DNA from: an uncultured Deinococcales bacterium
GTDB lineage: Bacteria; Deinococcota; Deinococci; Deinococcales; JAAFIG01
Length of the DNA stretch: 15,188 nucleotides
Assembly (NCBI GenBank): GCA_964247135.1
Contig: CAXTTL010000117.1
Span: 1 to 15,188, forward strand
Direction of reading: 5' to 3'
Shown one piece after another: positions 2,787-15,188 of this stretch. The translations under genes and the position numbers were made by a program. The notes beneath the pieces were generated by a model. The model was given only the letters and a program-made list of their open reading frames with translations, did not search any database and was not told the DNA's origin. Position 1 is the first letter of the stretch, and each line of letters starts with the position of its first letter.

Positions 2787-2827
2787 AAAATCTCGAGCAT
2801 CAAAATACTGATGCTCGAGATTTTTTT
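2787..2827. terminator. Bidirectional intrinsic terminator built from CTCGAG-containing repeats
   Basis: AAAATCTCGAGCATCA (2787-2802), loop AAATAC, TGATGCTCGAGATTTT (2809-2824), with a T7 run at 2821-2827. It lies between convergent genes. Confidence 0.85.
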
Positions 2828-2839
2828 GATGCTCGAGAT

Positions 2840-3370
2840 TTAAGCTTTTTTCTCGTCGTCTTTGGCTGCGTCTGTCGCTACTTCTTTGGCTTTGTCGCCG
2901 CCACCGAGCAAACCGCCCAACAAGTTCTTCGCGCCTTCAAACACACCCTTGGCTGCACCTTCGACGGCGTGAACAACATCTTCGGCAACGTCTTTGGCTT
3001 TTTCAAAGGTGTCTCCAGCAACTTCGGCGGCTTTGCCTGCCAGGTCTTCGGCGGCGTGTGCGGCTTGACCAGCGGCGTTGCTGGCTTTGCCCATCAAGTC
3101 CCCAGCCACCTCTTTGGCTTGTCCAGCAACTTCACCCGCCTTGCCTGCCAAGTCACCGGCAACATCTTTGGCTTTGTCGGCTGCGCCCGCTGCTGCTTTT
3201 GCGGCAGAATCTGCCATATTGCCTGCTGTTTTGGCGGCAGAATCGACGGCTCCCGCTGCGGCATGTGAGGCATTTCCAGCCACGTCGGCTACTTTACTGG
3301 CGGCAGTGTCCGCTGCGATTGTGGCGGTTTTGGCTGCGGCGTCTGCGGCATTTTTGACTTCGTCGGACAT
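2840..3370 (-). CDS. Ala/Lys/Asp-rich repeat protein (LEA/apolipoprotein-like amphipathic helical repeats)
   Basis: 176 aa with imperfect 11-mer repeats (AKDVAGDLAGK, AKEVAGDLMGK, AAHAAEDLAGK, AAEVAGDTFEK). SD AAGGAG precedes ATG 3370, and a TAGAAT -10-like box lies at 3423-3428 (minus strand). Confidence 0.8.
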   Translation of the reverse strand: MSDEVKNAADAAAKTATIAADTAASKVADVAGNASHAAAGAVDSAAKTAGNMADSAAKAAAGAADKAKDVAGDLAGKAGEVAGQAKEVAGDLMGKASNAAGQAAHAAEDLAGKAAEVAGDTFEKAKDVAEDVVHAVEGAAKGVFEGAKNLLGGLLGGGDKAKEVATDAAKDDEKKA

Positions 3371-3462
3371 GATGATCTCCTTGTTAAATACTTGAACTCA
3401 TCTGGCATTGCCAAACTCGACCATTCTACGACTTCGAGCCGTGAAAAGTTCCAGGTGAAAGA

Positions 3463-6400
3463 TCAATGGCTCGAGTGTTGCCAATCTTGTAAACTCGAAA
3501 CGCCCAAATCAGCATCTTTGGCGTGTTTCAGCGCCTCGGCAATCCAGGTCGCCGCCTCGAGCGTGGTGTAGTGCGCCGTGCCATTCTCGAGCGCTTGGCG
3601 CAGATACTTGGATTCGGTCAGGTCAATCACCAAGTCTGGCAGGGGAAACTCGAGGTTCGCGGTTTCCAGGGTTGTCACAGTCCAACCGCTCGATTTGAGA
3701 CTTTGGGCGACCGGCTCGAGGTTTGCACCGATGAGAACCGCGCTGCCAGTCAGGGGCAGTTTGACATTTGCACCCAACTGGGCGCGGTAGTAGGCAATGT
3801 AAGGATCGCGGTCGATGCCCATGCTCTCACCCGTGGATTTCATTTCGGGTCCAAGTACCGGAATCACGCCCGCAAACTTCAGGAATGGCAAATGAACCTC
3901 CTTGGCGCTGTAAAAATTGGGAACCGGTGCAGTCGTGAAATTCAAATCCTCGAGCGTCTTGCCCGTGGCAATCAATGCCGCGTATTTTGCCAGCGGATGC
4001 CCGATGGCTTTGGAAACAAATGGCACGGTGCGGCTGGCTCGAGGGTTCGCTTCAAGCACGAAGACCTGTCCCTGATAAATGGCATACTGGCAGTTCATCA
4101 AGCCTTTCACGCCAATCTCGAGCGCCAGTTTTTTGGTGTGGGTGTGAACTTCCTCGAGCAATTTGGCTGAAAGGTGAACGGGCGGCAGCACGCAGGCGCT
4201 GTCGCCCGAGTGAATGCCTGCGGCTTCGATGTGCTCCATCACGCCAGCGATCACGACATTTGTACCGTCGCAAAGGCAGTCCACGTCCAACTCGAGCGCC
4301 CCCTCGAGGAATTGATCGAGCAGAATACTCGGGCTGCCTTCAACGGCGCTGTAAACGTCCGCCAGGTAGGTTTCGAGTTCGGATTCGCTGCGCACCACCC
4401 GCATGGCGCGACCGCCGAGCACGTAACTCGGGCGTGCCATCAGCGGATATCCCAGGCTCGAGGCGAGGGTCATGGCTTCGCTGGCATTGTTTGCCACTGC
4501 GCCTTTGGGCTGAGGAATGCCCAGTTGGGTGCAGAGTTGATTGAACTCGAGCCTGTCCTCGGCTTTGTGAATCGCGCTCGGTGATGTGCCAATAATCGGA
4601 GCGCCCGCCGCCTCGAGCGGTTTGGCGAGTTTCAGCGGTGTCTGCCCGCCGAGTTGCACGATCACGCCGACGGGTTTTTCGTGCTCGATGATGTTCATGA
4701 CGTCTTCAAAGGTCAGCGGCTCGAAGTACAGTCGGTCGGCGGTGTCGTAATCGGTCGAAACCGTCTCAGGGTTGGAGTTGACCATGATGGTCTCATAGCC
4801 CGCCTCGCGCAGCGCCCAGACCGCGTGAACCGTGGCGTAATCGAACTCCACGCCCTGCCCGATGCGGTTTGGACCGGAACCCAAAATCACAATTTTGGGT
4901 TTATCGGTGGGGCGCACTTCATCCTCCCATTCGTAACTCGAGTAATGGTAGGGCGTGTAGGCTTCAAATTCGGCGGCACAGGTGTCCACGGTTTTGTAAA
5001 CGGGCAAGGCTTTGGCGGTTTTGCGCAAGCTCCGAACCTCGAGTTCGGTATGCCCAACAATCTCACCGATTCGGGCGTCGCTCAAACCCAGGCGTTTGAT
5101 CTCGCGCCAGATTTCGTATTTCCAAGTTTCAATGTTTCCCAAGGTTAAGATTTCTTTTTCGGCTTCTAGCACCTCGAGCAACTGATACAAGAACCAGCGA
5201 TCAATCTTGGTTTTCTCGAACAGATCATCCACACCCATGCCGCGCCGCAACAGCTCGAGCACCGCCATGAAACGTTTTGGGGTCGGGATCAACAATTGCT
5301 CGAGCTGCGCCAAGTTCATGTCCTCAAAACCGCCGCGAATGTCGGATTCGAGGCTGCGGAAGGCTTTCATAAAGGATTCCTTGAAGGTTCGCCCAATTGC
5401 CATGACCTCACCGACGCTGCGCATTTGCGTGCCGAGGGTTTCGGGCGTGCCTGGAAATTTCTCAAAGGCGAAACGCGGAATTTTGGTGACCACGTAATCG
5501 ATGCTCGGTTCAAAACTGGCTGGCGTGCTTTTGGTGATGTCATTCGGCAGTTCGTCGAGGTGATAACCCACCGCCAGCAGCGCCGCAATTTTGGCTATCG
5601 GAAAACCCGTGGCTTTGGATGCCAGCGCACTGCTTCTCGAGACCCGAGGGTTCATTTCGATCACGATGATCTCGCCGTTTTTTGGGTTGACCGCAAACTG
5701 AATATTGCTGCCGCCCGTGTCCACGCCGATTTCGCGGATGATGGCGAGGCTGGCGTCGCGCAGTTTCTGATAGTCTTTGTCCGATAAGGTTTGCGCCGGC
5801 GCGACCGTGATGCTGTCGCCCGTGTGAACGCCCATCGGGTCAAAGTTTTCGATGCCGGTGATGATCACCACCGTGTCGTTGTGGTCGCGCATGACCTCGA
5901 GTTCAAACTCTTTCCAGCCGAGCAAGCTGCGCTCGAGCAGCACGGTATGAACGGGGCTGTCATGAAGCCCTTGGGTGATGATTTTGCGCAACTCGAGTTC
6001 GTCGTAAGCGATACCGCCACCCGTGCCACCGAGCGTAAAACTGGGGCGGATGATTGCGGGATAACCAATTTGGGTTACAAACTCGAGCGCTTCCTCGAGG
6101 CTGCCGATGGTTTTGCCCTGCGCGGTTTTGATGCCAATTTTGTGCATGGCTTGCGCGAACAACTGACGGTCTTCACCTTTTTGAATCGCCTGCACGTTGG
6201 CGCCAATCAATTCCACGCCGTACCTCTCGAGTATGCCAGCCTCGGCAAGCTCCAAGGATCGGTTTAATGCGGTCTGCCCGCCCAAAGTCGGCAGCAGCGC
6301 ATCGGGTCGCTCGAGTTCGATGACTTTGCTTAAATACTCCAAGGTTAATGGCTCCAGGTAGGTGCCGTCGGCGAGGTCTGGGTCGGTCATGATGGTGGCA

Positions 6401-6552
6401 GGGTTGCTGTTTACCAGAACGACTTGATATCCCGCATTTTTCAGGGCTTTGACGGCTTGGGTTCCCGAATAATCGAACTCGGCGGCTTGCCCGATTTGAA
6501 TCGGTCCCGAACCAACGATCATGATTTTTTTGAGGTCTTCACGTTTTGGCAT
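3463..6552 (-). CDS. carB: Carbamoyl-phosphate synthase large subunit
   Basis: '[33 protein letters not shown]', two ATP-grasp halves ('[24 protein letters not shown]', '[16 protein letters not shown]', '[16 protein letters not shown]'). SD AGGAG at 6558-6562 selects ATG 6552. Confidence 0.98.
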
Positions 6553-6576
6553 CTTCACTCCTGATGATGTGCGTCA

Positions 6577-6623
6577 ATTGTATAACCCGTGCAAATATAC
6601 CCGAAAAACTGCATAAAAATACA
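6577..6623 (-). promoter_or_regulatory. carB-proximal -10 element with tandem ARG-box (ArgR)-like operator
   Basis: TACAAT on the minus strand at 6577-6582. TGCATAAAAATACA (6610-6623) matches TGMATWWWWATKCA at 13/14. A weaker box, TGCAAATATACCCG (6590-6603, 10/14), is offset by 20 bp. Confidence 0.55.
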
Positions 6624-6645
6624 AGCCCCCAAATTTGGGGGCTTG
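6615..6645 (-). terminator. Intrinsic terminator upstream of carB and downstream of the envelope-protein gene
   Basis: Perfect inverted repeat CAAGCCCCC-AAATTT-GGGGGCTTG (6622-6645), followed on the minus strand by TATTTTT. Confidence 0.85.
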
Positions 6646-6675
6646 CGAAAGTCCTATCTCATAACCCAAGTGAGC

Positions 6676-6703
6676 AGTTTAGCAGGTCTGGCGCTGGAAT
6701 CAA
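6676..6703 (-). promoter_or_regulatory. Putative promoter pointing towards the terminator and carB
   Basis: Minus-strand TTGATT (6698-6703), a 16-nt spacer, then extended -10 TGc-TAAACT (6676-6684). Confidence 0.4.
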
Positions 6704-6739
6704 TAGGCTTGACGGCATTGCGAGTTTATACACTCGAGC

Positions 6740-7495
6740 TTATGGTTTAAAAGCGCCCTCGATGCCCAAAGAACCTGGTTTGAGGGCGATCAAGCCGCGC
6801 AAGCCGACCACAAAGCCGCCGTTTGTAAAGGCGTTCGAGAACAAGTTGTTGTAACCCGCGTAAAGCCCCAACTTAAATTGCGGCACGATGGTGTAGTACA
6901 AACCGCCGATCAAGCTGTAGCTCGCATTGGCGGTGCTGTTGTTAAAACCAGCCTCGCCCCGAGCAAACAATTCAATGCTTTTGACCGGCTCAAAAAACAG
7001 ACCGACGGTGCCGTTCGCGCCGTAAAACACCGCGCCAGCCGAAAAGTTATAACCAAATTCGCCCGATGCGGCTGCCAGGAATTTCAAGTTCGGCATAATC
7101 ACATAATTGATATTGATGCCAGCATTCACATCAGCCGCGACAGCGACGGCAGGAACAATCGCCACGTCAACGCCAACCCCAATTGGCACATCAACGAACA
7201 AGCTCGAGGTTTTGACAATGCTGACCACGTATTTCGCGCCGACCCGAGAAGCCAAAGAAAACGTGCCGACGCCCGTGTTGGGGTCAATCACAAAGCGTGG
7301 GCTGAGGCTTGCGCCAACAAAAAGTCTTGGCATGACTTCGATGCTGTAATTGAGGCTCGCACCAATCGAGAAATTAAATTGATTGCCTTGAAACACGGGC
7401 GCATCGACCGCCGCCGAAAATCCGTCTGCGAAGGCACTCGAGCTTAAACCAATTGCAATGAGGGCGACCAAGGATTTTAAGATGTTGCGTTTCAT
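6740..7495 (-). CDS. Secreted beta-strand-rich protein, probable outer-membrane beta-barrel of unknown family
   Basis: SD AAGGAG precedes ATG 7495. Signal peptide MKRNILKSLVALIAIGLSSSAFA|D. The mature chain is made of alternating Gly/hydrophobic strands with aromatic ends (GASLNYSIEVMP, GININYVIMP, GGLYYTIVP). Confidence 0.7.
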   Translation of the reverse strand: MKRNILKSLVALIAIGLSSSAFADGFSAAVDAPVFQGNQFNFSIGASLNYSIEVMPRLFVGASLSPRFVIDPNTGVGTFSLASRVGAKYVVSIVKTSSLFVDVPIGVGVDVAIVPAVAVAADVNAGININYVIMPNLKFLAAASGEFGYNFSAGAVFYGANGTVGLFFEPVKSIELFARGEAGFNNSTANASYSLIGGLYYTIVPQFKLGLYAGYNNLFSNAFTNGGFVVGLRGLIALKPGSLGIEGAFKP

Positions 7496-7763
7496 GTATT
7501 GCTCCTTTTGGGCATCAAACGTTCCCGTTGAACGTTTACTTATGTGTTGCACCCTAGGGTACAAAGACCACAAACTGATGCCAAAGAGATGAAGAATTCA
7601 TCTCAAAAATGAGTATCTCGAGAATCATGAGGAAATCCCCAAGCAGCCGAAGCTGTGTCACACGTCGCAGCTCAATTCAATTCGGGCTTGCGTGAAGGTT
7701 TCTTTAAACTTGTGACGCTGACGAAAATGACCCGTTCGGCTCGAGTTCGCCTGCGAATCGGGG

Positions 7764-7769
7764 TACACT
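7764..7769 (+). promoter_or_regulatory. -10 element of an apparently leaderless guaA transcript
   Basis: TACACT lies 7 nt before ATG 7777 and no SD is present. This arrangement is common in Deinococcota. Confidence 0.65.
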
Positions 7770-7776
7770 AGCCGTC

Positions 7777-9303
7777 ATGAGTTTGGTCATCCTCGATTTT
7801 GGTTCTCAATTTACGCGTTTGATTGCGCGTCGTTTCCGTGAGTTAAATGCTTTCAGCGTGATCTTGCCAGGCAATGCCAGCCTGGAAGAAATTCAGTCGC
7901 ACAACCCTCAGGGCATCGTCCTTTCGGGGGGTCCCGCCAGCGTTTACGACGCCGACGCGCCCGTTCCAGCAGCGGGCGTCATGGCACTCGAGTTGCCAAT
8001 TTTGGGCATCTGTTACGGAATGCAGTATTTGGTGTTTGCCGGTGGCGGCAAAGTCGAACGGATTGGCACTCGAGAATACGGCAAAGCCGTGCTCGAGTCG
8101 TATTCCGGCGATTTGTTCGCGGGTGTGAGCGGCGAATTTGTCGCCTGGATGAGCCATTCGGACACGCCGACCAGTTTGCCCGAAGGTTATTTCGTCTCTG
8201 CCAGCACCAGCGACACGCCAGTCACCGGAATCGAAAATCCGAGCCTCAAACGTTACGGCATTCAATTTCACCCGGAGGTCGTGCACACGCCCAAAGGCGC
8301 GAAATTGCTCGAGAATTTCCTGGGCATCTGCAATATCACCCGCGACTGGACGCCCGCCCATATCCTCGAGAATCTGATTGCGGATGTCAAAGCCAAGGTT
8401 GGCACGGACAAAGTGCTGCTGGCGGTTTCAGGTGGTGTGGACTCGAGCACCCTGGCATTGCTCTTATCCAAAGCCATTGGCTCGCAACTCAGTGCGGTTT
8501 TTGTCGATCACGGTTTGCTGCGCCTTAACGAACGCCAAGAGGTCGAAAAGGCGCTGCGTCCACTGGGCGACGAAAACCTGATCACGCTCGACACCAAAAA
8601 AGAATTTTTCGCCGCGCTCGAGGGGGTCAGCGAACCCGAAGCCAAACGCAAAATTGTCGGACGAGAATTCATCCGCGCCTTCGAGCGCGAAGCCAGACGG
8701 CTCGCCTCGAGCGGCTTTAAGTGGCTGGCACAAGGAACCTTATACCCCGACGTGATCGAAAGTGCGGGTGGCACCGGCGCAGCCAACATCAAGAGCCATC
8801 ACAATGTCGGCGGGCTGCCCGACGACCTCGAGTTCAGCCTGCTCGAGCCTTTCCGAACGCTGTTTAAAGATGAAGTCCGCGAGATTGCCAAACTCCTCGG
8901 GCTGCCCGAAGAAATTCGCACGCGTCACCCGTTTCCAGGTCCTGGCTTAAGCATTCGCGTGCTGGGCGAAGTCACTCCAGAAAAAGTTGACATCTTGCAG
9001 CGCGTGGACAATATTTTTATCTCGAGTTTGCGCGAATTTAACTTGTACCACGAGGTTGCCCAAGCCCTGGCGGTGTTGACGCCCGTTCAAAGCGTCGGCG
9101 TCATGGGCGACTACCGCACGTACTCGTACTTGGTGGCGCTCCGAGCCGTGACCAGCGCCGATTTCATGACCGCCGATTGGGCGAGGTTGCCCCAAGATTT
9201 TCTCGAGGTCGTGGCAAACCGAATTGTCAACCTTGTCCCAGAAGTCAACCGTGTGGTGTATGACATCACCAGCAAGCCTCCAGCCACGATTGAATGGGAA
9301 TAA
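7777..9303 (+). CDS. guaA: GMP synthase (glutamine-hydrolysing)
   Basis: '[15 protein letters not shown]', '[10 protein letters not shown]', 'QFHPEV', 'SGGVDSS', '[11 protein letters not shown]', 'RHPFPGPGL', '[16 protein letters not shown]'. Confidence 0.99.
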
Positions 9304-9337
9304 AATTCGAGCGGTTTTTTAGTTGAAACTCGAGCGT

Positions 9338-9370
9338 AAAAAAAGACCACCGATTTTAGGTGGTCTTTTT
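9338..9370. terminator. Bidirectional intrinsic terminator between guaA and the PEGA gene
   Basis: AAAAAGACCACC (9340-9351), loop GATTTTA, GGTGGTCTTTTT (9359-9370), between convergent stop codons. Confidence 0.88.
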
Positions 9371-9388
9371 GGGTTTTGATGCTCGAGA

Positions 9389-9826
9389 TTAATGCTGTAA
9401 ATGACTTGGGATCAACTTTGTTGCCCAGTTTGGCAACGGATCGTTGTTCATCAGTGACGGTGTAAGGTCAACATTTACTTGTGTCGTATCAAATTCGTAC
9501 CACGCGCCGGTGGCGGCATCGATCACGACGGGAAACAAGCCGCCCAAAATGTCCAAGACAATCCAAAGCGTGCCGACATGGTTGTTCAAGACAATGTTTT
9601 GATCTTTTCGCCCCGCGAGGCGAATGGTGATGTTGTAGCTGCGATTGGTTCGCAATGAGATTTTTGCGGGTGTCGTTCCCAACACGTTTCCGTCAACCAG
9701 AATTTGTGCACCTTGCGGATTGGAATTGATAAAGACACCCTGCGAGTCACCTTTAAAAATCAAGGCACAACTCGAAGTTGATGCGATCAAGGCGATGAGT
9801 GCGACGAACATCAACAGTTTTTTCAT
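9389..9826 (-). CDS. PEGA-domain-containing putative lipoprotein
   Basis: Signal peptide ending TSS|C (lipobox-like), PEGA signature 'INSNPQGAQILVDGNVLGTTP', and C-terminal hydrophobic 'LWIVLDILGGLFPVVIDAATGAWY'. SD GAGGGGG upstream. Confidence 0.8.
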   Translation of the reverse strand: MKKLLMFVALIALIASTSSCALIFKGDSQGVFINSNPQGAQILVDGNVLGTTPAKISLRTNRSYNITIRLAGRKDQNIVLNNHVGTLWIVLDILGGLFPVVIDAATGAWYEFDTTQVNVDLTPSLMNNDPLPNWATKLIPSHLQH

Positions 9827-9856
9827 AATAGCCCCCTCGAGCTGCTGCTCGAGATG

Positions 9857-9865
9857 AGTATAGCA
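9857..9865 (-). promoter_or_regulatory. Extended -10 promoter of the PEGA gene
   Basis: Minus-strand TGc-TATACT about 30 nt upstream of ATG 9826. Confidence 0.55.
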
Positions 9866-9954
9866 ATGGGTTTGGGTTAGATGTAAAAACCCTCAAAAAA
9901 ATCTTTTGGAAACGCAATTTTTGTACTTTGGTTTTTGATGCTCGAGTCAACATC

Positions 9955-9989
9955 AAAAGTTCCAAACCCGAGCCTCGAGTTTGGAACTT
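9955..9989 (-). terminator. Probable terminator of the rimP-nusA-ylxR-infB operon
   Basis: Minus-strand AAGTTCCAAACTCG-AGGCT-CGGGTTTGGAACTT (one G-U pair) ending in a short U run, 22 nt after the infB stop. Confidence 0.65.
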
Positions 9990-10011: not shown

Positions 10012-11871
10012 CTAAGCTTTGACTTCAACCGTTTCGGTGACCACAATCAAATCGCCAATTTCAAATTCGTCAAAATTGGAAACATTGATACCACACTCGA
10101 AACCAGTTAAAACTTCCCGTACATCGTCCTTGAAGCGCTTCAGACCAGAAATCTGACCTTTGGCAACCTCTTTGCCCTTGCGCATGACGCTGGCTTTGCC
10201 CGAACGCATGATCTTGCCCTCGAGCACATACGAACCGGCAATGTTGCCGCCCGCTTTGGGCACTTTGATGATCTGCCTGACTTCGGCGCGACCGACAAAT
10301 TTGTCTTCAAACACGGGTTCGATGGTGCCGCGAATCATTTTTTTGACTTCGTCGATCATTTCGTAAATGATGCGGTAGGTCTTGATTTCAACTTTTTTGT
10401 TGTCGGCAATTTTTTGCACACCAGCCGATGGCGTGACCGAAAAGCCCATGATTTTGGTGTCAACCGCCGTCGAAGCCAAAAGCACGTCGCCCTCGGTTGG
10501 AGCGCCGATGCCCGCGAACAAAATATGCACCTCGACATCGTCGTTGTTCTCGCGCAACAAAATGCCCTCGAGCGCCTCGAGCGAACCTTGGGTATCGGCA
10601 CGCAAGATCAAATTGACCTGGCGTTTTTCGACTTTGACCTCGCCGACCTTGCCCAGCAAATCCTCGATGCTCATGCCAGCCGCAGCGCCCTTGCCTTGCC
10701 CGACGGCTGCCTCGCGCTCGGCGTCGTCGGCGGCATCGACACGGGTTTCTTTGCGACCCGCAATGATTTCCCTGGCATCGTGTTCGTTTTTGGCTCGCTT
10801 CACGAGTTCACCCGCGATAGGGGTTTGCGAGAAACCCAGCACTTGCACCGCCACACCAGGTTTGGCGCTGGTGATGCGGTTGCCGAAGCTGTCGGTCATG
10901 GCGCGAACCTTGCCGTACAATTCGCCGACCACCAAGAAATCGCTGACCTCGAGCGTTCCGCCCTGCACCAACACGGTGGCGAGGACTCCCGCCTGCTTGT
11001 CCACTTTGGCTTCAATAATCACACCAGCCAGTTCGCCGTCGGGATCGGCGCGTAAATCCTCTAGTTCGGCGACCAAACTGAGATTCTCGAGCAGATCGTC
11101 CACGCCCTGTCCGGTGCGGGCGCTGATCTGCACCACAATCGTGTCGCCGCCGTAAGCCTCTGGAATCAATGTGGCGTTGGTGAGGTCTTGCATGACCTTG
11201 TCGGGGTTGACGCCCGCAATGTCAATTTTATTGATGGCAACTACAATTGGCACTTTGGCGGCTTTGGCGTGCGCAATGGCTTCTCGGGTTTGCGGCATGA
11301 TGCTGTCGTCGGCGGCGACCACAATCACGGCGATGTCAGCCACCTGGGCACCTCGAGCGCGAATGCTGGTAAACGCTTCGTGCCCTGGTGTATCAATGAA
11401 CACGATCTTGCCTCGAGGCGTGTTCGCCTCGAACGCGCCGACGTGCTGCGTAATGCCGCCCGCCTCTTTGCCAGCAATGTTGGAATTGCGAATGTAATCG
11501 AGCAAACTGGTTTTACCGTGATCGACGTGACCCATGATCGTGACTACAGGCGGACGGTGCGGGATTTCTTTGGCGGGTTTGACAGGCTCAGTCTTGACCG
11601 TCTCAGTCTTGACCAGTTCTGGCTCGCTTGAATCCGTGACACTCGAGCTTGGAGCTGGTTTCTCACGATCTGAATCGACTGGCGATCCAACAACGCTGGC
11701 ACCGCTTTTTAACTCATCTTCGACCAGACCCTTCACAATTTCTGCCGTGTCATCATCAATGGTGCTCGAGGCGGTCTTGGCATCGACGCCCATTCCGTGC
11801 AACAACTCGAGCATTCGTTTACTTTCAATGCCAAGTTCTTTGGCAAGCGCATGAATTCGTACTTTCGACAT
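10012..11871 (-). CDS. infB: Translation initiation factor IF-2 (short form)
   Basis: IF2_N 'KVRIHALAKELG', G-domain 'RPPVVTIMGHVDHGKTSLLDYIR', 'DTPGHEAF', 'NKID', C-terminal 'LKRFKDDVREV..GFECGI'. SD GGAGG at 11877-11881. Confidence 0.99.
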   Translation of the reverse strand: MSKVRIHALAKELGIESKRMLELLHGMGVDAKTASSTIDDDTAEIVKGLVEDELKSGASVVGSPVDSDREKPAPSSSVTDSSEPELVKTETVKTEPVKPAKEIPHRPPVVTIMGHVDHGKTSLLDYIRNSNIAGKEAGGITQHVGAFEANTPRGKIVFIDTPGHEAFTSIRARGAQVADIAVIVVAADDSIMPQTREAIAHAKAAKVPIVVAINKIDIAGVNPDKVMQDLTNATLIPEAYGGDTIVVQISARTGQGVDDLLENLSLVAELEDLRADPDGELAGVIIEAKVDKQAGVLATVLVQGGTLEVSDFLVVGELYGKVRAMTDSFGNRITSAKPGVAVQVLGFSQTPIAGELVKRAKNEHDAREIIAGRKETRVDAADDAEREAAVGQGKGAAAGMSIEDLLGKVGEVKVEKRQVNLILRADTQGSLEALEGILLRENNDDVEVHILFAGIGAPTEGDVLLASTAVDTKIMGFSVTPSAGVQKIADNKKVEIKTYRIIYEMIDEVKKMIRGTIEPVFEDKFVGRAEVRQIIKVPKAGGNIAGSYVLEGKIMRSGKASVMRKGKEVAKGQISGLKRFKDDVREVLTGFECGINVSNFDEFEIGDLIVVTETVEVKA

Positions 11872-13448: not shown

Positions 13449-13895
13449 TTAACGATGCGAATCTGGCCACTCCGCCAAAAATGCGCGAATTCCTGCTATC
13501 GGCACGGTTTCGATCACGCCACCATCCAACTCGAGCGTCACACTGTCTGGCGTGACCGCCACGATTTTGCCAATGATTGAAGCATCCATGCGTTTGACCT
13601 TGATTTTCAAACCTGTGTGCCGTTCAAAATGCCGTACCGTAATGAGCGGTCGCTTCGGACCTGGCGACTCGAGATCGAGCTTGTACTCGCCCTGAATTGG
13701 GTCCAGATGGTCGAGTTCCAAGCCCAGCACGTTAGAAGCCCGCGTCAGGTCATCCACCGTGACTGGCGTTTCATCAATCCGATCAATCCGCACAATCAAC
13801 GACGTGCTGACCCGTCCACTCGAGACGATCACTTCCAAAACCTCATAGCCGAGCGGCTCGAGCACATCGCGGGCAATGTCTTCCAATGCGTTCAT
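13449..13895 (-). CDS. rimP: Ribosome maturation factor RimP
   Basis: 'VTVDDLTRAS......LD..DPI.GEYKLDLESPG..RPL....HF'. SD GGAGG at 13900-13904 selects ATG 13895 rather than the ORF-track start at 14063. First gene of the nusA operon. Confidence 0.95.
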   Translation of the reverse strand: MNALEDIARDVLEPLGYEVLEVIVSSGRVSTSLIVRIDRIDETPVTVDDLTRASNVLGLELDHLDPIQGEYKLDLESPGPKRPLITVRHFERHTGLKIKVKRMDASIIGKIVAVTPDSVTLELDGGVIETVPIAGIRAFLAEWPDSHR

Positions 13896-13964
13896 TTCAC
13901 CTCCAATTGACTGCTCGAGGTTTTCAAACCCGAGCCTAGAAACCTTCCCATCGAGGCTTTTTCC

Positions 13965-14102: not shown

Positions 14103-14489
14103 ATGCGATTTGAACACACCGCCTACAACGTTCCAGAACCCGTAGCCCAAGTCAAATGGTACGTCGAACATGTTGGCATGAAAATCCTGCGCGAGAACCT
14201 AACCGCGCCGTTCATTCACTTCATTTCAGACAGCGAAAACCGCTTGACGCTCGAGTTTTACCACAACCCAAACGGACAGATTCCAAATTACTGGGACATC
14301 AGCGTTTGGACGCAACACATTGCATTCACCTCGAGCGATATTGCCGCCGACATTGCCAGGCTCGAGGCGGCAGGTGGGAAGCAAGAAGGCGAAGCCGTCC
14401 ATTTTCCGAATGGCGATTCGGTGGTGTTCGTGCGTGACCCTTGGGGGTTGACGCTGCAACTGGTGTACCGAAGCGCACCTTTGTTTTAA
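14103..14489 (+). CDS. VOC (glyoxalase/bleomycin resistance/dioxygenase) family protein
   Basis: 'FEHTAYNVPE......WY.EH.GM', 'LEFY', 'QHIAF...DI.A...RL.AAG', 'FVRDPWG..LQL'. SD AAGGAG at 14089-14094. Confidence 0.92.
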   Translation: MRFEHTAYNVPEPVAQVKWYVEHVGMKILRENLTAPFIHFISDSENRLTLEFYHNPNGQIPNYWDISVWTQHIAFTSSDIAADIARLEAAGGKQEGEAVHFPNGDSVVFVRDPWGLTLQLVYRSAPLF

Positions 14490-14496
14490 GACACGT

Positions 14497-15188
14497 TTAG
14501 TGCCAAAGCGGCGTTTCTCGAGTTTTTTGGATCAACCAAAAACTGCTGACCAAACATAGCGCAATCGTGATGATTCCAGCCTCGAAGCCAAACGCGCCAC
14601 CCGTGAAGAATTCAGCCCCCTGAATACGTGGTTGGATCAAGCTCTTAAACGTATTGCCTGACACCGCCACACCAAAAATTGGTCCCTGCATAAAGTTCCA
14701 AAAAACATGAACGCCAGTCAACAACCACAAATCCCTGGTCCAAACAAACAATGACCCAAGCGCCACGCCAGCCAAACCGACGGCGACGGCACCAATCAAG
14801 GTTGCGTTGGTGTTGCCCAAATGCAAAACACCAAAGAGCATTCCGCTGAGCGCCAACGCCCAGCCTGTTCCAATCGATTTCTCGAGCGTTAGAAACAAGA
14901 TACCGCGAAACAAGACTTCCTCAAATGCTCCTGCGAAAACGAGCAAAGCAAAAGCACCAGCCAAAGCACCCGCATCAAAAGAAATGGTTCGCACCGAATA
15001 CCAGCCCGCCAGTGCAGCAATTAACACAATACCACTGTACAAAATTACTCCTGCCACTGCACCAAAAAGTAAGCCTCGAGCCGGTTTTATCGGCTTTAAG
15101 CCATTTGTTGTTGCCTGCAACCAGTTGATTTTGCCAAGTCCCAGAATTGCGCCAATGCCAACCATCAAGCCAAGTGCTCGAGTGACCA
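14497..15188 (-). CDS. CPBP (CAAX protease/Abi, Rce1-like) intramembrane metalloprotease, 5' end outside the window
   Basis: 'FEEVLFRG', 'FGVLH', 'HVFWN', 'TGGAFGFEAG' and multiple TM helices. The frame stays open to the window edge. Confidence 0.92.
   Translation of the reverse strand, partial: VTRALGLMVGIGAILGLGKINWLQATTNGLKPIKPARGLLFGAVAGVILYSGIVLIAALAGWYSVRTISFDAGALAGAFALLVFAGAFEEVLFRGILFLTLEKSIGTGWALALSGMLFGVLHLGNTNATLIGAVAVGLAGVALGSLFVWTRDLWLLTGVHVFWNFMQGPIFGVAVSGNTFKSLIQPRIQGAEFFTGGAFGFEAGIITIALCLVSSFWLIQKTRETPLWH

Follow-up and report, generated by a model that had tools for sequence, protein, structure and literature searches.

What does a 14-nt word that recurs between genes, close behind their stop codons, do in the genome of an uncultured Deinococcales bacterium? 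The question is raised by a 15,188-bp stretch of contig CAXTTL010000117.1 (assembly GCA_964247135.1; hereafter, the window), in which an earlier note had singled out the word CTCGAGCATCAAAA, consisting of the palindromic hexamer CTCGAG and an 8-nt extension. The note had proposed that the word was either the full consensus of a protein-recognised signal resembling a DNA uptake sequence (DUS), with the hexamer as its core, or a small element of 3′ untranslated regions, akin to repetitive extragenic palindromic (REP) sequences, acting in mRNA 3′-end formation or stability. The observation itself was confirmed, and the recurrence is real and non-random. As to its meaning, we favour, with about even chances of being right, the reading that a short repeat linked to terminators is present, of which the 14-mer represents the conserved half; its best form is AATCTCGAGCATCAAAA, and it would act at the level of transcription and RNA.

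Copies of the repeated word lie at gene 3′ ends

Four exact copies of CTCGAGCATCAAAA were found, all of them intergenic, at 2792-2805 on the plus strand and at 2824-2837, 9374-9387 and 9933-9946 on the minus strand; the coding DNA of the window contained none. Checked against the list of open reading frames and the sequence, the distances from stop codon to copy given in the earlier note proved right: 18 nt behind lemA, 2 nt behind the gene of a 176-amino-acid, 'LEA-like' protein, 1 nt behind the gene of a PEGA-domain protein and 65 nt behind infB. A bare CTCGAG located 1 nt past the TAA of a gene encoding a 277-amino-acid protein (6733-6738) was also borne out, and exact hexamers were found no more than 2 nt from the stop codon at three of nine gene ends (P ~0.004). 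At 9304-9320, the guaA stop is followed by AATTCGAGCGG and T6, with CTCGAG at one mismatch 2 nt past the stop; adding this near-match brings to four the genes whose stop codon has a CTCGAG-like word no more than 2 nt away.

The repeat is longer than 14 nt. The 17-mer AATCTCGAGCATCAAAA occurs exactly at 2789(+), 2824(-) and 9374(-), with three further copies at up to three mismatches (0.03 expected), and two of the three exact copies overlap a TAA stop, their leading A or AA being stop-codon bases. Allowing two mismatches in the 14-mer revealed additional copies at 2806-2819(-), 9329-9342(+) and 10549-10562(+), the last of which lacks the CTCGAG core, lies within infB and is probably a chance match. 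In all, seven matches at zero to two mismatches were counted against a shuffle mean of 0.20, and none of 200 shuffles reached seven. The four exact and two near copies occupy three intergenic gaps, each of which holds gene 3′ ends.

The extension CATCAAAA follows CTCGAG in 4 of 198 oriented flanks, where 0.005 would be expected by chance, while every other 8-nt extension occurs at most twice. None of 2,000 column shuffles exceeded a multiplicity of two, as the earlier claim of a non-random extension had anticipated. All five sites carrying CTCGAGCATCA are among the 12 intergenic of the 99 CTCGAG sites of the window (hypergeometric P = 1.1e-5). These copies come from just three intergenic regions, two of the arms in the lemA gap representing an 18-nt tandem duplication, and when the sites are counted as three loci the intergenic confinement has P = 1.4e-3. 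Another 14-mer, CGCCGCCTCGAGCG, is present in three copies (2485, 3550 and 4606, plus strand), all genic (sense in lemA, antisense in carB), and GCCTCGAGCG-type 10-mers occur seven to nine times; both recurrences probably reflect the Ala/Arg codon context flanking Leu-Glu.

The copies form or adjoin predicted terminator hairpins

In the predicted folds, all copies form part of, or directly adjoin, a strongly folding 3′-end hairpin. The elements concerned are as follows.

2787-2826, both strands: predicted bidirectional intrinsic terminator of the lemA/LEA-like gap
2789-2805, plus: 17-mer copy 1, AATCTCGAGCATCAAAA, 5′ arm of the predicted lemA terminator hairpin
2806-2822, minus: arm 2, the two-mismatch copy AATCTCGAGCATCAGTA, complement arm of the same hairpin
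2824-2840, minus: 17-mer copy 2, a third arm, 2 nt past the TAA of the 176-amino-acid protein gene, its first A being the last base of the stop
6733-6738, palindromic: bare CTCGAG after the stop of the 277-amino-acid protein gene, without the extension
9326-9342, plus: degenerate copy AAACTCGAGCGTAAAAA (three mismatches), 22 nt past the guaA stop, followed by an A-tract and the inner hairpin
9340-9370, both strands: predicted inner terminator, bidirectional, with a 12-bp stem (AAAAAGACCACC / GGTGGTCTTTTT) and a U-tract on either strand
9374-9390, minus: 17-mer copy 3, its first two A's being the last two bases of the PEGA gene TAA
9846-9855, minus: partial copy ATCTCGAGCA in the PEGA gene 5′ leader; a second CTCGAG downstream overlaps the ribosome-binding stretch GAGGGGG
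9933-9946, minus: 14-mer copy 4, directly behind the infB terminator
9933-9958: predicted second hairpin behind the infB terminator, in which TTTTGATG and CATCAAAA pair over 8 bp with CTCGAG in or near the loop
9957-9989, minus: predicted infB intrinsic terminator with a 15-bp stem and CTCGAG (9974-9979) at its apex, followed by UUUUGAUG

The gap between the convergent lemA and LEA-like genes measures 66 nt. The stem predicted there, ATCTCGAGCATCA/TGATGCTCGAGAT, is a perfect 13-bp helix that A:U pairs lengthen to 16-17 bp, with a loop of 4-6 nt and terminator tails consisting of U7 on the plus strand and UUUGUUAUU on the minus strand; the region 2765-2850 folds at -27.2 (plus) and -30.5 (minus) kcal/mol, with z-scores of -5.1 and -7.7, respectively. 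As modelled, this structure is a textbook bidirectional intrinsic terminator built wholly from the motif and its complement. The third arm can replace arm 2 in pairing with arm 1, yielding an 18-bp stem, and the tandem duplication (2809-2826 and 2827-2844, TGATGCTCGAGATTTTTT and TGATGCTCGAGATTTAAG) runs into the stop codon of the 176-amino-acid protein gene.

The guaA and PEGA genes are also convergent and lie 85 nt apart. The inner hairpin of this gap is unrelated to the motif and is flanked by the degenerate CTCGAGCGTAAAAA on one side and an exact copy on the other; the minimum-energy folds display an outer clamp in which CUCGAGC pairs with GCUCGAG (9300-9395; -32.6 and -25.5 kcal/mol; z = -4.8 and -6.1). 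The third gap separates infB from the PEGA gene on the same strand. Here, the plus strand reads CTCGAG-TCAA-CATCAAAA and then the infB hairpin, so ordered on the minus strand that the terminator is followed by UUUUGAUG, 4 nt and CUCGAGCAUCAAAA, with UUUUGAUG and CAUCAAAA forming the small second hairpin. The infB 3′ region folds at -40.6 kcal/mol (z = -4.5), and at all three gaps none of 200 shuffles was equally stable in any case. The PEGA gene leader at 9827-9860 (minus) reads ATCTCGAGCAGCAGCTCGAGGGGGCTATTATG and contains two CTCGAG 12 nt apart. The terminator of the 277-amino-acid protein gene (6621-6646, minus) has no CTCGAG beside it.

A hairpin and a T-run were thus predicted for lemA(+), the LEA-like gene(-), guaA(+), the PEGA gene(-) and infB(-), and the stable GC-containing stems, short loops and U-tracts 3′ of the stem that define intrinsic terminators are all present in these predictions. 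The U-tracts are U7 for lemA, UUUGUUAUU for the LEA-like gene, U5 for guaA, U7 for the PEGA gene and UUUUGAUG for infB, all of them within 100 nt of the stop codon. These elements share an order on the terminated strand, in which the hairpin is followed by T(4-7), GATG or ACG, 0-4 nt and CTCGAG; the opposite strand reads CTCGAG-CATC-A-tract and then the hairpin. Seven strand-specific terminators were examined, six in the window and one in a locus, L073, from a related Deinococcales metagenome-assembled genome (MAG). This order is present, with CTCGAG 3-8 nt from the T-run, at five of the seven (lemA+, guaA+, PEGA-, infB- and L073-), and at the terminator of the LEA-like gene the motif is its own 3′ arm. 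In a terminator-consensus scan, 9340-9370(+) and 9989-9957(-) ranked among the best sites. No Rfam family matched in the window at gathering thresholds, and a blastn search of 2780-2845 against 72,556 plasmids returned ten records, all with E of at least 2 and none from Deinococcota.

Orientation and related loci

The earlier note had read the 14-mer as oriented with the upstream gene. This holds for every copy in the window but not in L073, in which the gene ending just before the motif has TTTTGATGCTCGAG on its sense strand. Statistically the rule is weak: there are three independent orientation trials (P ~0.125), and two of the three loci are convergent gaps in which the A-tracts of the inverted pair face inward. 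This confounds the orientation rule: wherever convergent genes flank an inverted pair, each of them automatically has a sense copy. The constant feature is the orientation of the word relative to the hairpin, not to the gene.

Scanning genome contigs for the exact 14-mer yielded at least 118 loci, where arithmetic gives a chance expectation of ~4,400 for a 14-mer in 596 Gb. Nearly all the matches listed are chance ones: 115 are from outside Deinococcales and three from CTCGAG-rich Deinococcales MAGs (L073, L088 and L111), with one match each. In L073, a gene on the minus strand has a predicted terminator of 19 bp, behind which comes U7-GAUG-CUCGAG; a second CUCGAG 8 nt away pairs with the first (GCUCGAG/CUCGAGC; -47.1 kcal/mol, z = -8.1). 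The L088 copy is in a divergent 5′ region and that of L111 inside an open frame. With ~20,000 CTCGAG in 3 Mb, two strands and a factor of 4^-8, chance matches are estimated at ~0.6 per genome, so that one match per Deinococcales MAG among those listed is compatible with the chance level for CTCGAG-rich genomes. In positions 1-614 of L088, six of seven CTCGAG are followed by CA on the same strand, though open frames lie on both strands; this bias may denote a strand-biased extended word in that species.

The hexamer is over-represented separately from the extension

CTCGAG occurs 99 times in the window where 3.17 would be expected, a ~30-fold enrichment corresponding to 6.5 per kb, with 87 sites in genes and 12 in the 932 nt of non-coding DNA (6.1 vs 12.9 per kb). 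Codon choice is marked accordingly by the word: 52 of 70 Leu-Glu dicodons are written CTCGAG, whereas elsewhere CTC accounts for 73 of 377 other Leu codons (19%) and GAG for 89 of 248 other Glu codons (36%), the codons preferred outside Leu-Glu pairs being TTG and GAA. The Leu-Glu dipeptide is itself in 2.3-fold excess (70 vs 30 expected). In-frame CTC-GAG makes up 52 sites and the other two frames contribute 13 and 22. Spacing of the sites is slightly more even than random (coefficient of variation 0.86 vs 0.98, P ~0.09), with 10 gaps of 30 nt or less against 17.4 expected. The hexamer is certainly under a strong drive of its own, separate from the extension.

This enrichment is a lineage-specific trait. 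Three mid-GC Deinococcales MAG loci harbor 5-11 CTCGAG per kb, and the first 50 kb of the D. radiodurans megaplasmid MP1, a plasmid and not the chromosome, has 8 against 18.9 expected. Leu-Glu counts in 120 NusA homologues, taken as a proxy for the lineages that share the hexamer drive, did not discriminate (3 vs 2.9 expected in the window, with similar values elsewhere), and our literature searches found no report of CTCGAG over-representation in Deinococcota. One preprint includes CTCGAG among the methylated motifs of some hot-spring genomes, naming Fimbriimonadia and 'Group 2' (10.64898/2026.06.24.734251).

Were the 14-mer the full consensus of a DUS-like signal with the hexamer as its core, the extension should show through around the other sites. 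The comparison of flanks confirmed the extension between genes and found none of it in coding DNA: CATC is absent from all 172 coding CTCGAG flanks and the 8-nt extension from all 87 coding sites, while positions +5 to +8 of coding flanks have an A content of 0.16-0.21 against a background of 0.23, the C at +1 being mildly raised (0.38). Five other intergenic CTCGAG (6733, 7617, 7740, 9836 and 9974) also lack the extension. Coding flanks differ between the strands (CG, for example, follows the hexamer in 26 cases on the plus and 4 on the minus strand), and these asymmetries track gene orientation. Since the extension is absent from all coding flanks, it is no graded consensus of the hexamer, whose sites form two classes, and the DUS-like proposal is not supported here. 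We read the 14/17-mer as a distinct intergenic sub-family containing the hexamer, a view that is drawn from a small window and could change with the whole genome.

A putative terminator-linked module

The other proposal of the earlier note, a REP-like element at mRNA 3′ ends, is supported by the anatomy, every copy being an arm of or abutting a hairpin with a U-tract; taken together, the readings offered in the note are partly supported. The recurrence of the word, its positions and the predicted hairpins with their U-tracts are what the analysis shows; by the folds, these hairpins would terminate transcription in vivo. On the terminated strand, the proposed module would consist of the terminator hairpin, a U-tract of 4-7, GAUG (or ACG), 0-4 nt and CUCGAG, the other strand running CUCGAG-CAUC-A-tract into the hairpin. 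Three roles would be open to such a module, given the self-complementarity of CTCGAG and the pairing of A-tract with U-tract. In the lemA/LEA-like gap it would provide both arms of a long perfect bidirectional terminator; in the guaA/PEGA gap it would clamp and lengthen an unrelated terminator hairpin; and at infB and in L073 it would form a second, back-up hairpin just behind the terminator. Transcription would thereby be kept from running on into closely spaced neighbouring genes, and 3′ ends would be protected against exonucleases.

Structure by itself leaves the identical extensions at three loci unexplained, and either copying or a sequence-specific partner is therefore needed. The 18-nt tandem duplication in the lemA gap is evidence that local copying occurs. 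The extension may have spread among terminators by local duplication or by gene conversion, with copying over distance involving gene conversion or a small mobile unit, and the CTCGAG-saturated genome would offer a free supply of hairpin seeds. Alternatively, a factor might recognise these particular bases. Recruitment of abundant short motifs and their complements as terminator stems is described in other bacteria (PMC1852404).

Several points weigh against this reading. It comes from three independent loci in one 15-kb window, at which the terminators are predicted ones. Two of these loci have an unrelated true stem, so the motif is not needed for the hairpin, and what it adds there is modest: 7 bp of clamping in one case, a second hairpin of 8 weakly held pairs in the other. 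A purely structural role fails to explain the same 8 nt, as any complementary pair would serve. The terminator-consensus scan of the window revealed no overall excess (25 vs 22.9 in shuffles) and did not list the 2790-2822 hairpin, probably because the extended A:U stem uses up the required T-run; the case for terminators rests for these reasons on the folds. Finally, the copies in L088 and L111 may each be due to chance.

The predicted structures resemble the ordinary bidirectional terminators of convergent genes in having an A-tract, a GC-containing stem, a short loop and a T-tract, within 100 nt of both stops. They differ in that ordinary terminators have no stem or flank sequence in common across loci, whereas 14-17 nt are identical at three loci here. 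Should the proposed module prove functional, a single reusable word would serve this lineage for both building and reinforcing terminators. This would represent a natural case of a hyper-abundant palindrome recruited into RNA 3′-end formation, and the word would offer a simple means of predicting from sequence where operons end in uncultured Deinococcales. Why CTCGAG is enriched ~30-fold is the larger question, and the motif makes it testable, the intergenic copies being the sole places where flanks are free to reveal the preference of the factor responsible.

Alternative explanations and comparison with known systems

Other accounts of the identical extensions have to be weighed against a terminator-linked repeat. 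The signal may reside in the DNA itself, CTCGAG being a genome-wide word recognised by a protein and the 14/17-mer its full recognition sequence, visible only where coding does not interfere and merely co-opted by the terminators. An uncultured, mid-GC Deinococcales clade would then possess a CTCGAG system similar to uptake signals or to the highly iterated palindromes (HIPs) of cyanobacteria, with AATCTCGAGCATCAAAA as the full word of the driving protein, kept only at terminators, and with a hexamer drive that would have recoded about three quarters of the Leu-Glu pairs and doubled their number. If true, the clade would provide the first example of such a system beyond cyanobacteria, Pasteurellaceae and Neisseriaceae, and its phylum is one noted for natural competence and extreme DNA repair. 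We consider it unlikely, albeit the least so of the alternatives. The drive on the hexamer is clear from its count (99 vs 3.2), from the Leu-Glu dicodons and from the Leu-Glu excess, the slightly even spacing of the sites is consistent with it, and the LEA-like and PEGA genes, which have no internal CTCGAG, bear the motif right past their stops. The lack of CATC and of A-richness in coding flanks and the five bare intergenic sites argue against it, as do the one-sided form of the extension and the density, the hexamer at 6.5 per kb being far denser than described uptake signals, which stand at ~1 per kb.

The closest functional parallel is with the terminators formed by the uptake signal sequences (USS) of Pasteurellaceae and the DUS of Neisseria (Kingsford, Ayanbule and Salzberg 2007, PMC1852404), where a genome-abundant word likewise forms, through close inverted intergenic copies, the terminator stem with A/T runs at its foot. 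In the window, inverted intergenic pairs are found at the predicted terminators 2789-2822 and 9326-9390, and the abundant word shapes the proteome as USS/DUS do, here through Leu-Glu. Unlike USS/DUS, the abundant word is here a 6-bp palindrome, the 14-mer is confined in the window to positions outside genes, and at two of three loci the motif lies beside the terminator stem instead of forming it. Uptake signals are 9-12-mers present hundreds to thousands of times per genome, both within genes and between them. They are described as having, in general, at least 1,000 copies per genome (PMC1852404). The 14-mer, missing from all coding sites, has no such distribution, while the hexamer alone would be abundant enough. 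For the hexamer, the closest parallel is HIP1 (GCGATCGC) and other cyanobacterial HIPs (PMC4390886, PMC5861425), which are similarly short palindromes enriched tens-fold in coding and non-coding DNA alike and enforced via codon choice. Within the window CTCGAG has this kind of enrichment; the 14-mer is neither palindromic nor present in genes. Phylum and word differ from those of HIP1, and although extensions are possible on HIP1 too, those reported are all palindromic (PMC4390886), whereas the extension here is one-sided. HIPs are said not to reach high abundance outside cyanobacteria (PMC5861425). The window's 14 genes, to which the search was confined, include no cognate (orphan) methyltransferase for the word.

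A somewhat more doubtful explanation is that of a mobile mini-element of the REP, palindrome-associated transposable element (PATE) or miniature inverted-repeat transposable element (MITE) type, a small hairpin repeat of single-stranded DNA that would be mobilised by a transposase of the Y1 (HUH) class, for instance a REP-associated tyrosine transposase (RAYT) or the TnpA of IS200/IS605, landing at gene ends and sometimes supplying the stop codon. Identical 17-mers at three sites with unrelated flanks would fit such an origin, as would the two copies that overlap a TAA stop. So would the extragenic, palindrome-forming copies at 3′ ends, a location also reported for REPs (PMC12306157, PMC5861425). 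The complement strand of the motif contains TTGAT, the pentanucleotide target of the D. radiodurans element ISDra2, whose insertions occur on its 3′ side (PMC2806898), a match to be taken as a lead only since a 5-mer is easily matched by chance. The window however holds no transposase gene, RAYT (Y1 transposase) included; the unit, at 13-17 nt, has no terminal inverted repeats with target duplications, and no duplicated flanks of the kind expected of MITEs surround the 2787-2826 or 9326-9390 units. Conservation ends 2 nt past CTCGAG, although a left end would have to go on from there to include its subterminal hairpin. The PEGA-domain protein also speaks against insertion: six close relatives (77-94% identity), picked from nine BLASTP matches at 80% identity or more, all stop at the same residue, which suggests a stop older than any insertion or unconnected with it. 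Seven more distant relatives (54-61%) have C-termini 1-8 residues longer, a comparison of proteins alone and so not decisive on the origin of the stop.

REP sequences and bacterial interspersed mosaic elements (BIMEs) of proteobacteria, which have been proposed to act in mRNA stability and in termination, resemble the present copies: they are extragenic repeats that form hairpins and cluster at the 3′ ends of genes. REPs are imperfect palindromes of ~20-40 nt with a 5′ GTAG-type tetranucleotide, GTAG/CGTC serving as their tag; the copies here are at most half the length of REP/BIME elements, have no GTAG or CGTC and are accompanied by no RAYT within the window. They also carry or adjoin canonical U-tracts, the criterion by which RepRanger separates terminators from REPs (PMC12306157).

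The least probable account, in our judgment, denies the copies any function of their own and takes them for by-products of the hexamer drive and of slippage or gene conversion in AT-rich gaps, tolerated beside terminators. The 18-nt tandem duplication in the lemA gap, the small number of loci (just three) and the single matches, in mixed contexts, in each CTCGAG-rich Deinococcales MAG among those listed are what such an account would lead one to expect. It is at odds with 14-17 identical bases at three unlinked loci, against the 0.005 expected among 198 flanks, and with the constant placement of the word relative to hairpin and T-run.

Three smaller candidates were dropped: a promoter reading of TTGATG, which has no -10 element at the correct spacing; a plus-strand mini-open reading frame, ATG-CTC-GAG-ATT-TAA, which has no ribosome-binding site; and the sub-word GCATC as a type IIS restriction site.

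Genes of the window and other features

The window has a GC content of 0.48-0.59 and contains 14 genes, located as follows.

280-2163, plus: DUF2207 gene
2204-2773, plus: LemA gene, TAA at 2771-2773
2840-3370, minus: gene of a 176-amino-acid Ala/Lys/Asp/Glu-rich repeat protein ('LEA-like'), TAA at 2840-2842
3463-6558, minus: CarB gene
6740-7573, minus: gene of a 277-amino-acid, beta-barrel-like protein with a signal-peptide-like N-terminus, TAA at 6740-6742
7777-9303, plus: GuaA gene
9389-9826, minus: PEGA-domain protein gene, TAA at 9389-9391
14063-10012, minus: rimP-nusA-ylxR-infB operon, infB TAG at 10012-10014
14103-14489, plus: glyoxalase gene
14497-15186, minus: CAAX protease gene

The 176- and 277-amino-acid proteins have no family match in Pfam or NCBIfam, and the labels 'LEA-like' and 'envelope protein' given to them reflect composition only. 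An internal repeat of 54 nt (18 amino acids) is present in the gene of the former. NusA shares 78-80% identity with proteins from Deinococcales MAGs, 74% with that of Deinococcus roseus and 96-99% with metagenome proteins, which places the source among the uncultured, mid-GC Deinococcales.

The true start of the RimP open reading frame (204 amino acids, minus strand) is probably an ATG near 13894, with GGAGGTG upstream. Setting the start there renders the CTCGAG site at 13914, which reads CTCGAGCA and is located ahead of that ATG, non-coding as well. Further upstream on the minus strand lies TTGAGT-17-TATACT (14056-14028), which resembles a promoter; a strong GC hairpin of 11 bp (13997-13972), with TTCTTATGG behind it, is also present, and the arrangement could be a leader attenuator of the rimP-nusA-infB operon.

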